In this document: positions 27,901 to 39,339 of the stretch, one piece after another
Layout of the letters: each line of letters begins with the position of its first letter
Numbering within the stretch: the stretch's first letter is position 1
The notes under the pieces: generated by a model
The model's input: only the letters and a program-made list of their open reading frames with translations
Told to the model about the DNA's origin: nothing
Database searches by the model: none
Made by a program: the position numbers and the translations under genes
Virus record (IMG/VR): IMGVR_UViG_3300013121_000030
Span: 64,001-128,000 of that record
Length of the DNA: 64,000 nucleotides
From: an uncultured virus (IMG/VR IMGVR_UViG_3300013121_000030)
Taxonomy: Duplodnaviria > Heunggongvirae > Uroviricota > Caudoviricetes
Direction: 5' to 3' (one strand)

Positions 27901-27958
27901 AGTGTAGCATGCTGATCCGCGAGTTACACGTGTAACTTGTCCCCTGATGTGCTACACT
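27901..27958. promoter_or_regulatory. Back-to-back divergent pair of TGTAAC-N16-TACACT promoters
   Basis: Minus copy 27901-27928, plus copy 27931-27958; the -35 boxes form the palindrome agttacacgtgtaact. Confidence 0.8.
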
Positions 27959-27966
27959 CTCTCGTA

Positions 27967-29040
27967 ATGAGCACTTTCGCAACGACCATCCACACCATCA
28001 AGATCTCCGCACACCCGAACGCGGATGCGCTCGAACTCGCCCACGTAGGGGCGTACGTGAGCATCGTCAAGAAGGGTCAGTTCCAGACGGGTGACCGTGT
28101 AGCCTACATCCAGGAGCAGAGCCTTCTTCCTGAGGCGCTTCTGGACGAGCTGGGTCTCCGTGGACGTTTGGCGGGCTCCGAGGGGAATCGTGTCAAGGCG
28201 GTCAAGCTCCGGGGGGTTCTGTCCCAGGGGATTTGCTATCCGGCCCGGCCGGAGTGGGAGGTCGGCCAGGATGTCTCTGAGATCCTGGGAATCACGAAGT
28301 GGGAGCCCCCGATTCCGGCGCATCTGGGAGGCCAGATGCTCAACCTTGGGTCGCGCCACACCGCGACCTACGACATCGAGAATTACAAGGGCTTTCCTGA
28401 CGTCCTGGTCCCTGGGGAGGAGATCGTCGCCACGGAGAAGATCCACGGCACCTGCTGCCAGGTGGTCCTTCTCCCGAAGGGGATGGAGGTCGAGGGGAAG
28501 CGGGTGTTCGTGGGCACAAAGGGGATGGGGGCCAAGGGCCTGGTCTTTCGGGAGGAAGTCCCGAACCCCAACGTCTACATCCGAGCCACCGAGAAGATTC
28601 GGGGAATCTTGGAGGACAGCCCTCTCTTCGTTGGAGCCACAGAGCCTGTGATCCTTCTGGGGGAGGTCTTCGGGGAGGGCGTCCAGGATCTCCACTATGG
28701 AGTCAAGGGAGTCACGTTCCGGGCCTTCGACATCGTTCGGGGATTCCGCGGAGGTCAGAACTTCCTGGACGATTCGGATCTGGATGAGGCCCTTAATGCC
28801 CTCGGGATTCCTCGGGTTCCGGTCCTCTTTCGGGGCCCCTTCGACCTGGAGGCGCTCATGCCCCTCATCCGCGGCAGGGAGACCCTCTCGGGGAATGCGG
28901 TCCACATCCGTGAGGGGATCGTGGTCCGCACGACGAAGGAGCGGAAGGACCCTCAGATTCCCGCCCTGGAAGGTCGTGTCCAGCTCAAGCTGGTGTCGGA
29001 GGACTATCTCCTCCGCAAGGGGGGGACGGAGCACAACTGA
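27967..29040 (+). CDS. RNA ligase, Rnl2 / DRB0094 family
   Basis: N-terminal HPNADALELA OB-like domain, KLRGVLSQG; motifs TEKIHGT, GEVFG, FDI, REGIVV, LKLVS..YL. Confidence 0.92.
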   Translation: MSTFATTIHTIKISAHPNADALELAHVGAYVSIVKKGQFQTGDRVAYIQEQSLLPEALLDELGLRGRLAGSEGNRVKAVKLRGVLSQGICYPARPEWEVGQDVSEILGITKWEPPIPAHLGGQMLNLGSRHTATYDIENYKGFPDVLVPGEEIVATEKIHGTCCQVVLLPKGMEVEGKRVFVGTKGMGAKGLVFREEVPNPNVYIRATEKIRGILEDSPLFVGATEPVILLGEVFGEGVQDLHYGVKGVTFRAFDIVRGFRGGQNFLDDSDLDEALNALGIPRVPVLFRGPFDLEALMPLIRGRETLSGNAVHIREGIVVRTTKERKDPQIPALEGRVQLKLVSEDYLLRKGGTEHN

Positions 29041-29287: not shown

Positions 29288-29914
29288 ATGAGACTCAACG
29301 CCAGTCTGGAAACCATCCAGAAGACATACGAGACGGAGCGAGCAGGGAGGGCGCTCGCCAGCCAGATCCTCTTTCTCGTGGAGGATCTCCAAGTCACCAT
29401 GAAGGACGAGAAAGATGGCTGGGGAGAGATCGCCAAAGAATCCGGGAAGAGGGAGCTTCTGGATCTTCTTCTCAAGGACCAGAATGCCCATGGAGACGAG
29501 GATTCCAGCGTGGCCTCCGGGACTCGCGCATGGGTTCTGTGGGGCGGTGAGGCCGCAATCGAGCCGTATCTTCAGGCGGTAGAAATTGTCCGCTTCCGAA
29601 AGCATTTCGGGGCGTGGCGAAAGGACCAGAAAAGCGCATTCCGATTCCTCCTCAAGAAGGTGGGAACTGAGGAGATGTTTGGTCTGGATCAAAGCCGCAA
29701 GAACCTCTTCTTCAACCTCGAAGAGGCAACCACGGCTCTGGCCACGGCCTACTCAAAGTGGGTCGAAAAGACTTCAAAGGAATACCTCACCTGCATTGAG
29801 GCAGCCGAGCTTCATCTCAAGAAGCTTCGGGATTCGTGGGATAGCGCACAAAAACGGCTCCTGGAATCCCACCAAAACATCGTCGGAGGTAATCTCGAAA
29901 ATCACCTCCGGTAA
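29288..29914 (+). CDS. Hypothetical protein (leaderless, coiled-coil-like)
   Basis: 208-aa ORF. Confidence 0.6.
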   Translation: MRLNASLETIQKTYETERAGRALASQILFLVEDLQVTMKDEKDGWGEIAKESGKRELLDLLLKDQNAHGDEDSSVASGTRAWVLWGGEAAIEPYLQAVEIVRFRKHFGAWRKDQKSAFRFLLKKVGTEEMFGLDQSRKNLFFNLEEATTALATAYSKWVEKTSKEYLTCIEAAELHLKKLRDSWDSAQKRLLESHQNIVGGNLENHLR

Positions 29915-29915
29915 G

Positions 29916-29943
29916 TGTAACTTCGACGTTGGCGTGCTACACT
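29916..29943 (+). promoter_or_regulatory. Phage promoter TGTAAC-N16-TACACT driving the tRNA-like RNA
   Basis: Motif family member; predicted +1 at G29950. Confidence 0.8.
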
Positions 29944-29949
29944 GTCTTT

Positions 29950-30094
29950 GAACTCAACCCCTCCCTGTAGTTCAACAGGGAGAACACCCGGAAGTGATCC
30001 GGAAGTAGGCCGAGGCCCGGTTCGATTCCGGGGATGTGTGGACACAGGCTGAAAGTGTTGGAGGTTCGATTCCTCTCAGGGAGGGGTTGAGTTC
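29950..30094 (+). ncRNA. tRNA-like non-coding RNA with 18-bp closing stem, D-arm and two T-arms
   Basis: GAACTCAACCCCTCCCTG pairs perfectly with CAGGGAGGGGTTGAGTTC; TA-GTTC..GAAC D-arm; T-arms CCCGG-TTCGATT-CCGGG and GGAGG-TTCGATT-CCTCT; no CCA. Confidence 0.8.
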
Positions 30095-30135
30095 TTGTTC
30101 TCCTTCAGATCAAGACTTCAGAGTATCAGAAACCA

Positions 30136-32577
30136 ATGCCGACACTTCAGCTCTTCTCTCGCGGGGGACAACCCCGCACACTCTTCAACGTCCGTCTTGA
30201 TTCCTTTGCGGGAGTCGCGGCACCAGCTCCCTCCCCCAAGCACTTCGTGATTGTGGTGGACCGTTCGGGGTCCATGTGGGGATCCATGGAGGATCTGAAG
30301 AAGACCCTCCTTCAGCTCCTGGTGGTTCAGGGCTGTACGGATCCTGGGATGCTCGTGTCCCTCATCTCCTACTCTTCCCAGGGGGACATGACGGTTCACT
30401 TCCAGCGGGTTCCTGCTCGCCAGATCACTTCGGGCTCGTCCGCGGAGACCTCGATTCGGGCACTCCACGTCACGGGGCTGACCTGCATCTCGCAGGCTCT
30501 CTCCAAGGCGGTGGAGATGATCCAGCCTGGGGAGGCGACCCTGATTTCCCTCCATTCGGACGGCTACGCGAATGATCGGTCGCCATACACGGAGGGTCGT
30601 GCATTGGATGCGATCGTCGCGGACTTCTCGTCCAAGTATCCGAGCGCATGCATCTGCACGATCGCATACAGCGCCTACTCCGACTTCGGCCTCCTCGATC
30701 GGCTCGCGTCGGCGACGGGAGGTTCCTGCATCGTCGCCTCCTCAATCTTCGAGGTCTTTGAGGCTCTCTCTGCGTCCATGAAGACGCTGGAGGGGACTTC
30801 CAAGGCCATCGAGATCCCAGCCCAGGGGGCCGACTTCGTGGTGGCGATCGACATCGAGGCAAAGAAGGTCTACGGAGCCGAGGGGGATCTTCGGGTTTTT
30901 GGTCTCCACTCGGGAGCGACCATCCTCCGTCTCACCAAGGCTCCTGGGGCCTCTGAGGCAGCTCTGAGTCCCGAGTGGACGCTGGCCTGTGCGCGGGCCT
31001 TCCTGTCCATGAGGCGGCTGGCGGATGCCAAGGGCGCGGCCATGGCTTCTCGTGTGGAGGCCATGAAGAGCCACCTGAACGCGCTCCTCCCCTCGGATCT
31101 GGCCACCTGGTCCCAGGCCATGGAGGAGGCGATTTTCGGGGGTGAGGATCTCCACCAGGTTCCGTCGCTGGTATCCAGCGACGCATCCGTCCTCGACATC
31201 TGCAAGGTTCTGGCGCAGGATCCCTCGCACGTTCAGATCCACATCCCCAGCCTGATGGCCGGTTACAAGCGCCGGTCCATCATGAAGGTGGCAGGCAAGT
31301 GGGATGGGGGGACGCTCGTGGCCCCCAAGACCCGCACCAAGAATGCGGATGACAGTGAGTGGGTGGCCATCACGGGGGTGGATGTTTCGAGCACGAAGTG
31401 TTCGATGAACCTCGCCACGAAGCGCCCGATCGATCTCGTGGACCAGTCGGGAAAGGTCATCACGGAGGCCGGTGGGATTTCTCTGGTGCGGAAGCTCTCC
31501 AACTTCCGCAACTACACCCTGGTCGCGGACGGGAAGGTTCTGGTCCCGCGTCTCCGCATCAAGATCTCTTCCAAGGCCCTTTTTGATCGCCTGGTGCAGA
31601 TGAGGGCCATTCCTGCGGGGAAGTTCACTCCCACGGAGAGTGTGGAGATTGATTTCGAGGGACGTCCTCTCGTCTCGGACGAAGGGTTCTCGATTCCCGC
31701 AGACCTCTTCCAGCGGATGGCGCTCCTGCGGGTGATTTCTTCCACCCTCGCAGCCATCATGAAGGGGGAGTCCGCGGAACTCACCAAGGAGCAGATCGCA
31801 GCGCTTGCTGAGGTGGGTCTCAGCAAGAATCTGTTCGTGAACCTTCCGAGCACGGTTCCGTACGCAGACCGGGATCAGGCTGTGGCGAACGGCTGGATTG
31901 ACAGCTACGTGGCCTACTCGATCAGCCTGGGCTCCAAGGAGATCTTCTCGCTCGGGGAGTTCTACTCCGCGAATGAGTTCCTGGGTCGGTGGTGGGAGGT
32001 CTCGACGACGGCGAATGGGAAGGAGAAGAAGCCCACGTGGAATATTCTCCGGGATTCCTCGGCCACGGTTTCTCCGAAGGTCTCCAAGGCCAAGGTGAAT
32101 GCGGTGGATGAGTTCCAGCGCCCCATCGTGGAGGTCCTTCTGGGGATCGCTTCGGGGGATGCCGTGGACGCCCTCCAGAAGCGGATTCTGGACCTCGACG
32201 TGGGGATTGATCCCGATGATGTGGATGATCTCTTCCGCTGGAGGGAGCTGGGCGAGCGGATGGACGCCAGCCTGGACATCATCGCCAGGAAGGTCCAGGC
32301 TGGTCTGGAATCTCTCCAGCGCGATTACCTGGCGCCGCTGGCATTCCAGGTGGGTTCGACGGGTCTTCCTCCGGCGGAGGATCTTCAGGCCCATGATGCC
32401 GAGGGTCTGAAGAAGGAGTGCCCCAGCCTCGCGGGCACGAAGATCCCTGAGGGCACGTTCTTCCTCATGGGGGAACACATCCTCGGAATCTATCCGGAAA
32501 CGTGCTGGTTCTCCACGGAGAAGGGCATCGCAGAAGCTCGGGCCCTGATGGCGGGTTCCGTGGCTGAGGCTGACTGA
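30136..32577 (+). CDS. Large vWA domain protein
   Basis: N-terminal MIDAS VVDRSGSM, GLTCISQAL, HSDGYAN; 813 aa. Confidence 0.8.
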   Translation: MPTLQLFSRGGQPRTLFNVRLDSFAGVAAPAPSPKHFVIVVDRSGSMWGSMEDLKKTLLQLLVVQGCTDPGMLVSLISYSSQGDMTVHFQRVPARQITSGSSAETSIRALHVTGLTCISQALSKAVEMIQPGEATLISLHSDGYANDRSPYTEGRALDAIVADFSSKYPSACICTIAYSAYSDFGLLDRLASATGGSCIVASSIFEVFEALSASMKTLEGTSKAIEIPAQGADFVVAIDIEAKKVYGAEGDLRVFGLHSGATILRLTKAPGASEAALSPEWTLACARAFLSMRRLADAKGAAMASRVEAMKSHLNALLPSDLATWSQAMEEAIFGGEDLHQVPSLVSSDASVLDICKVLAQDPSHVQIHIPSLMAGYKRRSIMKVAGKWDGGTLVAPKTRTKNADDSEWVAITGVDVSSTKCSMNLATKRPIDLVDQSGKVITEAGGISLVRKLSNFRNYTLVADGKVLVPRLRIKISSKALFDRLVQMRAIPAGKFTPTESVEIDFEGRPLVSDEGFSIPADLFQRMALLRVISSTLAAIMKGESAELTKEQIAALAEVGLSKNLFVNLPSTVPYADRDQAVANGWIDSYVAYSISLGSKEIFSLGEFYSANEFLGRWWEVSTTANGKEKKPTWNILRDSSATVSPKVSKAKVNAVDEFQRPIVEVLLGIASGDAVDALQKRILDLDVGIDPDDVDDLFRWRELGERMDASLDIIARKVQAGLESLQRDYLAPLAFQVGSTGLPPAEDLQAHDAEGLKKECPSLAGTKIPEGTFFLMGEHILGIYPETCWFSTEKGIAEARALMAGSVAEAD

Positions 32578-39269: not shown

Positions 39270-39339
39270 AGTGTAGCACGTCGAGTCCGAACTTACACTA
39301 ACTTTTTAGTGTGTAACTCTGGGGTTTGGGTGCTACCGT
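39270..39339. promoter_or_regulatory. Second divergent promoter pair (minus 39270-39297; plus 39312-39339)
   Basis: TGTAAG-N16-TACACT and TGTAAC-N16-TACCGT; each has an ATG 6 nt downstream. Confidence 0.78.

Follow-up and report, generated by a model that had tools for sequence, protein, structure and literature searches.

A tRNA-like RNA with two T arms common to an uncultured phage and Aeh1-like Aeromonas phages

What does a phage do with an RNA that has the core of a tRNA, closed ends and two T arms, and no anticodon loop? The question is raised by a 145-nt element in a stretch of 64,000 nt (hereafter the window) that comprises bases 64001-128000 of a 234,244-bp IMG/VR phage record (IMGVR_UViG_3300013121_000030, abbreviated G000 in coordinates). 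CheckV puts the completeness of this record at 90%, and ARAGORN finds 42 tRNA genes in the whole phage genome. The element lies at window 29950-30094 (+), which corresponds to G000:93950-94094 (+). A preliminary description of the window, made from its letters, had singled it out as a possible tRNA mimic. Here we report that the element belongs to a real and previously undescribed RNA family, common to the window phage and to Aeh1-like Aeromonas phages. We infer that the RNA is a stable, trans-acting, non-decoding tRNA mimic presenting two elbows, and this is the claim to which we commit; among specific roles we place a scaffold for Ro-type proteins first, with a decoy as its main rival.

Architecture of the RNA

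The RNA, all of it on the plus strand, is delimited by its closing stem and its ends are therefore predicted ones. The 5' strand of this stem (29950-29967) forms a perfect 18-bp helix with the 3' strand (30077-30094), beyond which lies a T-rich stretch (30095-30105), and the inner 7 nt of the 5' strand (29961-29967) are equivalent to one side of an acceptor stem. Next come the dinucleotide TA, equivalent to U8-A9, and a D arm, together spanning 29968-29985; the D arm consists of a 4-bp stem, GTTC at 29970-29973 with GAAC at 29982-29985, and an 8-nt loop containing GGG. The anticodon-arm position is occupied by a CCGGA/TCCGG hairpin (29988-30002) of 5 bp with a 5-nt loop, which is followed by a single-stranded AAGTA linker (30003-30007) and by an extra module of 43 nt (30008-30050). 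This module has a three-way arrangement in which a 4-bp helix, GGCC at 30008-30011 with GGCT at 30047-30050, encloses a canonical T arm (T arm 1, CCCGG-TTCGATT-CCGGG, 30016-30032) and a small GG-loop hairpin (TGTG-TGGA-CACA, 30035-30046). A linker with GAAA (30051-30059), the last base of which (30059) is equivalent to position 48, leads to T arm 2 (GGAGG-TTCGATT-CCTCT, 30060-30076), which has one G-U pair and abuts the closing stem. The characteristic features of a tRNA core are all present, namely an acceptor stem stacked on a T arm with a TTCGAWT loop, U8, and a GG-bearing D arm, and these are conserved among the homologues described below. No CCA follows the acceptor-equivalent strand and there is no 7-nt U33 loop.

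On rereading the sequence we find the closing stem, the D arm, the hairpins and both T arms where the preliminary description had placed them, and its remark on the missing CCA and U33 loop is borne out as well. It had also proposed that an insert of ~70 nt replaces the anticodon arm. The elements of that insert stand while their placement does not: the CCGGA hairpin is at the anticodon-arm position, and a module of ~50 nt is at the position of the variable arm. The helix that encloses the module had been overlooked.

The minimum free energy (MFE) of the RNA is -71 kcal/mol compared with -50.1 +/- 3.9 kcal/mol in 200 shuffles (z -5.3), none of which is as good. The single-sequence MFE fold swaps T arm 1 for a long hairpin, and we rejected this hairpin as the true fold since only 47.6% of its cells are paired in the alignment, with zero covariation. 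A pairing of the 3' side of the D arm with the linker before T arm 2 was likewise discarded, being unconserved in PX29 when checked by eye. A weak terminator-like call at 30063-30093 covers the 3' part of the RNA.

Homologues in Aeromonas phages and covariation

When IMG/VR was scanned for pairs of T loops spaced 25-45 nt apart, at least 118 loci were returned, and among the matches listed was a locus of Aeromonas phage Aeh1 in which the order of elements is identical to that of the window RNA. By blastn the Aeh1 element is found in 13 Aeromonas phage records at 84-100% identity. From three Aeromonas phage sequences (PX29, phiAS5 and Ah1) we built a covariance model, R1, with a hand-written structure and with the window sequence excluded. 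R1 matches the window element full length (29954-30090; 78.9 bits, E 1.4e-15) with zero non-canonical pairs flagged, and the window's ordinary tRNAs score at most 18.4 bits against it. By the same model there is a single copy per genome. In public annotation the element is unannotated in Aeh1, Ah1, phiAS5, avDM12-TAAL and AsFcp_2, and its first (5') 75 nt are labelled tRNA-OTHER in PX29 and tRNA-Ala in phiWae14.

The window element and its Aeromonas relatives were brought together in a model-fitted alignment, A5, of eight rows, six of which are distinct. Standard pairs fill 98.7% of the cells at paired columns of A5, and 26 of its 40 pairs are changed on both sides. None of 500 shuffles reaches any of five covariation measures, slid-partner controls are only 35-48% paired, and RNAalifold recovers 39 of the 40 pairs. 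Double changes affect 12 of the 14 aligned pairs of the closing stem, four of the five in the hairpin at the anticodon-arm position, all four in the module helix, two of five in T arm 1 and three of five in T arm 2; the D stem keeps all four of its pairs and has one doubly changed (GTTC/GAAC versus GCTC/GAGC). The AAGTA linker is invariant in all eight rows, the GAAA of the second linker and the whole small GG-loop hairpin do not vary either, and the loop of the anticodon-position hairpin has 5 nt in two of the six distinct sequences (window and Aeh1) and 4 nt in the remaining four. At the level of aligned sequence, all helices are shown to be preserved by compensatory substitutions that separate two unrelated phage lineages. 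Since the homologues carry such changes, the decayed tRNA duplication that had been set out as the refuting alternative is not borne out.

Our searches brought up no additional strict member. The window element gave zero matches by blastn against 50,697 phage records, and a 7-kb query returned tRNA-Leu and RNA-ligase fragments only. The scans of larger collections used exact patterns rather than covariance searches, and divergent members can escape them. In IMG/VR, a T arm plus a GTGTGGRCACA hairpin occurs at four loci, all in Aeromonas isolates; two T arms plus GAAA occur at 18 loci with zero strict members; and a D loop plus GAAGTA plus a T arm occurs at five loci, four from Aeromonas and one an ordinary tRNA. 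A pattern search of JGI metagenomes gave 35 loci, all of them chance matches in non-tRNA sequence and none matching R1 (0/35), and one of GTDB genomes gave three loci with zero R1 matches. Aeh1 aside, the best of the other two-T-arm loci among the matches listed score 25-41 bits against R1. Those that we inspected as candidate members were rejected: they are tRNAs whose inserts bear T arms, tRNAs nested in one another, or a tRNA with a second copy of its 3' half behind it.

Comparison with known RNA families

ARAGORN calls seven tRNAs in the window and none at the element. Rfam at gathering score over the whole window, RF00005 included, finds nothing there, and at E<=10 over 29850-30200 (351 nt) it yields noise only (sR11, mir-3689, Afu_191 and Yfr1), with neither RF00005 nor RF02553 among the hits. 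These scans uphold the earlier statement that the RNA is of no known family, and we found the architecture described neither in the literature searched nor in Rfam 15, with the proviso that the supplementary phage list of PMC4201824 might include Aeromonas phages. A decoding tRNA was also rejected, in keeping with what had first been proposed: the loop at the anticodon position is 4-5 nt in all six distinct sequences, U33 is not conserved, and CCA is not encoded.

The closest known type is the Y RNA YrlA (RF02553), with which the element shares its being a non-coding tRNA mimic with canonical T and D arms, closed 5' and 3' ends and an occurrence in phages that encode Ro-type proteins. A further likeness is possible in the 15:48 pair, equivalent to columns 22/106 of A5, where the five distinct Aeromonas rows have G:C and the window A:U; the change is a single event without significance (102 of 500 shuffles). 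The order of domains differs. As outlined in PMC4201824, YrlA is permuted and runs from closing stem through V, T arm, closed acceptor hairpin and D arm back to the closing stem, an order that we also observe in the Lumos control and in a YrlA-like RNA of the window phage itself. The element, which has two T arms and is closed at its acceptor end, follows the order of a normal tRNA instead: its closing stem leads into the D arm, the hairpin, the module containing T arm 1, and T arm 2, and then returns. RF02553 gives no match at the element at E<=10 and zero matches at E<=0.1 in the Aeh1 locus, compared with 39.3 bits for the mycobacteriophage control Lumos and 37.4 bits for the window phage's RNA at G000:211372-211486, both positive controls themselves being below the gathering score of 69. 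The motif GNCGAA(N)G, which in YrlA lies close to the 5' end and has been proposed to contact Rsr, is absent by eye from 29950-30094, and the Aeromonas copies have TCGAGAA instead. Membership in YrlA, which had been raised as a possibility, was rejected on these three grounds: no RF02553 match, unpermuted order and no GNCGAA motif.

Other stable phage RNAs resemble the element in part. T4 species 1 and 2 (rnaC and rnaD) are phage stable RNAs of 119-139 nt and of unknown function that lie beside tRNA genes, and rnaC has a terminal T arm adjoining an acceptor-like stem; unlike the element, rnaC folds with one T arm and no D arm, and rnaD has no T arm. Kinship with either was rejected, since R1 matches neither (L122:4909-5172) and its matches at that locus are T4 tRNA genes at 23.4 and 13.8 bits. 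Class II tRNAs likewise have an extra helical element between the anticodon arm and the T arm as well as canonical acceptor, D and T arms, whereas the extra part here is a 43-nt three-way module with a T arm, and the element has no anticodon loop, no CCA and no call by tRNA finders. Finally, the Yrl1 and Yrl2 RNAs of Thermus phage phiLo are outlined in PMC12135203 as stem-bulge-stem structures with a CGAA motif, encoded directly upstream of the Ro60 gene. They are alike in being phage small RNAs with a 5'-3' closing stem, partners of a phage Ro60; judged by that description, not by sequence, they are set apart from the element, which has a perfect stem, no CGAA and a position 62 kb from the Ro60 gene (rsr).

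Transcription and genomic setting

Directly upstream of the RNA is a phage promoter-type block of 29 nt (29916-29944, +) composed of TGTAAC, a spacer and CGTGCTACACT, with the hexamer TACACT at 29938-29943. The 234-kb genome contains 15 copies of this promoter family at no more than 7/29 mismatches, the RNA's own included, as the preliminary description had supposed in calling it a promoter of the phage's own family. Copies in the window lie at 29916 and 40336 (+) and at 39297, 22286 and 21388 (-), with ten others elsewhere in G000; a 93%-identical copy is found at G000:225416. In eight of the 14 other copies an ATG begins 6-7 nt past TACACT, a spacing that implies leaderless mRNAs, and G29950 holds the same position, again as first described. 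Judging by this spacing, the RNA would be transcribed from its own phage-type promoter with a start at about G29950, the first base of the closing stem.

The gene downstream of the RNA by 41 nt (30136-32577, +) encodes an 813-aa protein with a vWA domain (Pfam VWA_2). Between the RNA and the ATG at 30136 we saw neither a promoter copy nor a Shine-Dalgarno-like sequence, which makes it probable that transcription reaches the vWA gene through the RNA. In the database this protein is called as P0001 (763 aa), with a start 50 codons after the 30136 ATG and past the DxSxS MIDAS motif; the 813-aa reading is probably right because homologues cover 92-99% of the longer open reading frame (ORF). Among 8000 candidates scored, 260 homologues have E<=0.001, many of them in bacteria and jumbo phages; a direct peptide scan found none. 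A profile scan gave 41 loci, of which the 34 with long matches were searched for the RNA.

Upstream, two genes away from the RNA, is a gene for an RNA ligase (27937-29040, +; PF09414 5.9e-20, PF21189 6.7e-14). The neighbouring ORF of 208 aa gave no Pfam, PHROG or Atlas lead and is unlike the ORF upstream of the RNA in Aeh1. Sequence searches of the PDB with the vWA protein and with Aeh1p164, a protein encoded near the RNA in Aeh1, returned nothing useful.

Proposed role and alternatives

We hold with moderate confidence that the RNA is a stable, trans-acting, non-decoding tRNA mimic whose likeliest role is that of a Y-RNA-like partner of phage Ro-type (TROVE or DUF2828 plus vWA) RNA surveillance or repair machinery. 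The closed stem of 14-18 bp would protect the ends of the RNA, or would guide its excision from a longer transcript running into the vWA gene. We infer that this stem, whose sequences in the two lineages are unrelated, is under selection in both, and is either kept in the mature RNA or serves excision. Two tRNA-like elbows would form by docking of the T loops with the D loop and the GG hairpin; the two-elbow idea of the preliminary description fits the fold, which offers each T loop a possible partner in a loop bearing GG. The RNA might then serve proteins as a scaffold, presenting them with the surfaces of a tRNA while being neither decoded nor charged.

Several lines of evidence point toward Ro-type proteins. 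In all four Aeromonas records for which the upstream flank was read (Aeh1, PX29, phiAS5 and phiWae14) the RNA ends a tightly packed string of same-strand genes, and this string is opened, ~2.5-3 kb upstream of the RNA and on the same strand, by a gene for a DUF2828+vWA protein (Aeh1p164 in Aeh1). The DUF2828+vWA family occurs in 694 phage records and includes mycobacteriophage proteins annotated as 'Ro-like RNA binding protein', and the protein aligns weakly (E 0.001) with the Ro60 of the window phage over the TROVE/vWA junction. The latter, an orthologue of Ro60/Rsr, is encoded by rsr at G000:30086-31780 (-), has TROVE and vWA_Ro60 domains, and matches Deinococcus radiodurans Rsr (PDB 2nvo) at 4.5e-22. 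A copy of the RNA's promoter family sits at the start of this gene, whose close-packed surroundings leave no space for a Y RNA beside it; an ORF resembling dual-specificity phosphatases follows it. The Aeh1 genome as a whole has no YrlA match at E<=0.01. A gene order rsr-yrlBA-rtcBA is described in PMC7790460 and PMC4201824, and the RNA ligase gene near the RNA in the window is reminiscent of it. Taken together, the DUF2828 neighbour, the phage Ro60, the RNA ligase and the lack of YrlA in Aeh1 favour a Y-RNA-like scaffold role. As to precedent, TROVE proteins that work with a tRNA-like partner are outlined for some jumbo phages in PMC7824862, and binding of a phage Ro60 to phage Y-like RNAs and to host PNPase in PMC12135203.

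Against this reading stand a number of observations. The family is known from two lineages, most of the double changes trace to one deep split, and A5 was fitted to the R1 model. The link to Ro is circumstantial: the RNA lies ~62 kb from rsr and on the opposite strand, where the criterion applied to YrlA is a distance of at most ~4 kb on the same strand. A canonical YrlA-type RNA (the one at G000:211372-211486) is already encoded by the window phage, in which a search found no DUF2828 protein. The closing stem is perfect, with no bulge and without the GNCGAA/CGAA motif that has been tied to Ro60 binding (PMC4201824, PMC12135203). DUF2828-type proteins are in 694 phage records and the RNA in 13, and within 4.5 kb of a DUF2828-type gene R1 matches none of three phages (Lumos, FelixO1 and Vibrio phage 1.081.O). 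In four of 13 public runs (one RNA run and three listed as 'DNA?') no contig covers 29810-30217, a result that weighs neither for nor against. Two related searches were also empty: peptide patterns found no relatives of the window Ro60 in IMG/VR, and the whole records behind five loci with Ro60/DUF2828 homologues contain zero strict members, the best score, 35.5 bits, being a tRNA-Val with an extra T arm.

More tentatively, the RNA could represent a new class of tRNA mimic, an unpermuted 'double-elbow' Y-like RNA that bridges a Ro-type protein or an RNA-repair enzyme to a tRNA-recognising partner (RNase P, PNPase or a ligase), or that titrates a defence factor reading elbows.

The best surviving alternative to a Ro-type scaffold, though one we consider rather unlikely, is a decoy or sponge in which the two T loops or elbows and the acceptor-like helix bind up a host factor, or a defence nuclease that reads the body of the tRNA (its T loop, elbow or acceptor) and not the anticodon, or occupy tRNA-processing or tRNA-modifying enzymes. 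A canonical tRNA core with two canonical T loops, yet with neither an anticodon loop nor CCA, is what such an RNA might look like. The best-known anti-phage tRNA nucleases cut anticodon loops, however, and the RNA lacks this target. Its single gene copy per genome also speaks against a sponge, no defence or counter-defence gene is linked to it in either lineage, and the window and Aeh1 loci share zero protein neighbours. On the other side of the balance, the phage invests heavily in the supply and repair of tRNA, having its 42 tRNA genes and an RNA ligase next door, and jumbo phages are described in PMC7824862 as countering attacks on tRNAs.

It is improbable that the RNA is an unusual tRNA precursor, the module of which is removed like an intron or tolerated and the product of which is charged and used in translation or in some other aminoacyl transfer. 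Such an origin would be in line with the tRNA labels given to the 5' 75 nt in PX29 and phiWae14, with the RNA ligase gene near the RNA in the window, and with the existence of long-insert phage tRNA genes nearby (the third RNA of the Aeh1 cluster, see below). Removal of the module, however, leaves no 7-nt anticodon loop, as the loop is of 4-5 nt, variable and devoid of a conserved U33; there is no encoded CCA and no G3:U70, and the discriminator is unconserved (G in the window, C in Aeromonas). The module helices covary and its small hairpin is invariant in sequence, unlike a discardable spacer, and neither ARAGORN nor the Rfam tRNA model calls the RNA.

We assign a similarly small likelihood to a cis-acting element of the vWA transcript, that is a 5' leader, processing signal or attenuator for the gene 41 nt downstream. 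Probable transcription of this gene through the RNA and the T-rich stretch after the stem would suit such an element. A conserved leader was nevertheless rejected, and with it the cis-regulatory proposal of the preliminary description, since the RNA is within 2.5 kb of the vWA homologue at none of the 34 phage loci (0/34) and what lies downstream of the Aeromonas copies is small ORFs and other tRNA-like genes, not a vWA gene. That the fold is conserved in differing contexts argues for a role in trans.

Least probable is a functionless remnant, a decaying tRNA gene with a partial T-arm duplication: IMG/VR phage contigs commonly contain tRNA genes followed by an additional T arm or a second 3' half, and Table 4 of the Aeh1 genome paper (PMC1524935) lists three 'pseudo' tRNAs without detail, but the 26 compensatory pairs separate lineages otherwise without detectable DNA similarity here, the linkers are invariant, a dedicated promoter is present, and recent transfer with neutral drift is unlikely given the number of paired double changes.

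Other tRNA-like RNAs

Additional tRNA-like sequences were noticed in the course of these searches. In the window phage, the canonical YrlA-type RNA at G000:211372-211486 (+) lies between tRNA-Glu and tRNA-Pro in a large tRNA cluster, ~180 kb from rsr on the linear record. Its match to RF02553 (E 1.2e-7) covers the full model, and its order is closing stem, T arm, closed 7-bp acceptor hairpin, TA and D arm. The same cluster has six T-arm-bearing sequences that ARAGORN does not call, near G000 positions 206883, 207400, 207621, 210062, 210957 and 211624 (+), and these may be atypical tRNAs or further tRNA-like RNAs.

In Aeh1, two long tRNA-like genes (L125:3186-3311 and L125:3325-3446) directly follow the element. 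One of them is closed by a 13-bp stem and carries 52 nt of inserted sequence. The other is the third RNA of the cluster; it encodes CCA, reaches 53 bits as a tRNA although ~53 nt are inserted in its anticodon loop, and is annotated as tRNA-Val, its counterpart in PX29 being annotated as a joined tRNA-Leu. In mycobacteriophage Lumos, the gap after the Ro-like gene (L223:5941-6321) seems to hold three stem-closed RNAs that start with GTGGAC and end with GTCCAG, the middle one of which is the YrlA match.

Among IMG/VR phage contigs there are recurrent tRNA genes of 140-160 nt (L045:3871-4021 (+), L139:3434-3591 (+), L068 (-), and L007, L035 and L051), with an anticodon-loop insert composed of a hairpin with an AGTAAA loop and a stem enclosing a T-arm-like hairpin. 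L044:6612-6777 (+) looks like a complete tRNA nested in another tRNA-like gene. In L102, L080, L142, L230 and others, an additional T arm or a repeated 3' half often lies within ~20-50 nt behind a tRNA gene of a phage cluster. Seven two-T-arm loci (L142, L085, L139, L057, L120, L080 and L102) are flanked by a Ro60/DUF2828 homologue (tblastn E<=1e-17), and an eighth, L084, matches partially and weakly (8e-7), which points to a tendency of Ro-type genes to lie in tRNA clusters.

Significance

YrlA, the tRNA-like domain of tmRNA and viral tRNA-like structures all reuse the shape of tRNA to recruit proteins. What the present family adds is a design, undescribed in the literature searched, in which a tRNA core in normal order has its ends closed, lacks an anticodon and carries a further module with a T arm. 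Because members are found in cultured phages (Aeh1, Ah1, PX29 and phiAS5), the ends of the RNA, its modifications, its partners and the phenotype of a knock-out are open to direct test. The family bears on the ligands of the widespread phage Ro-like (DUF2828+vWA) proteins and on the role of phage 'pseudo-tRNAs'. Were the double-elbow class true, the conversion of a tRNA into a protein scaffold would have arisen in phages a second time and by an independent route.

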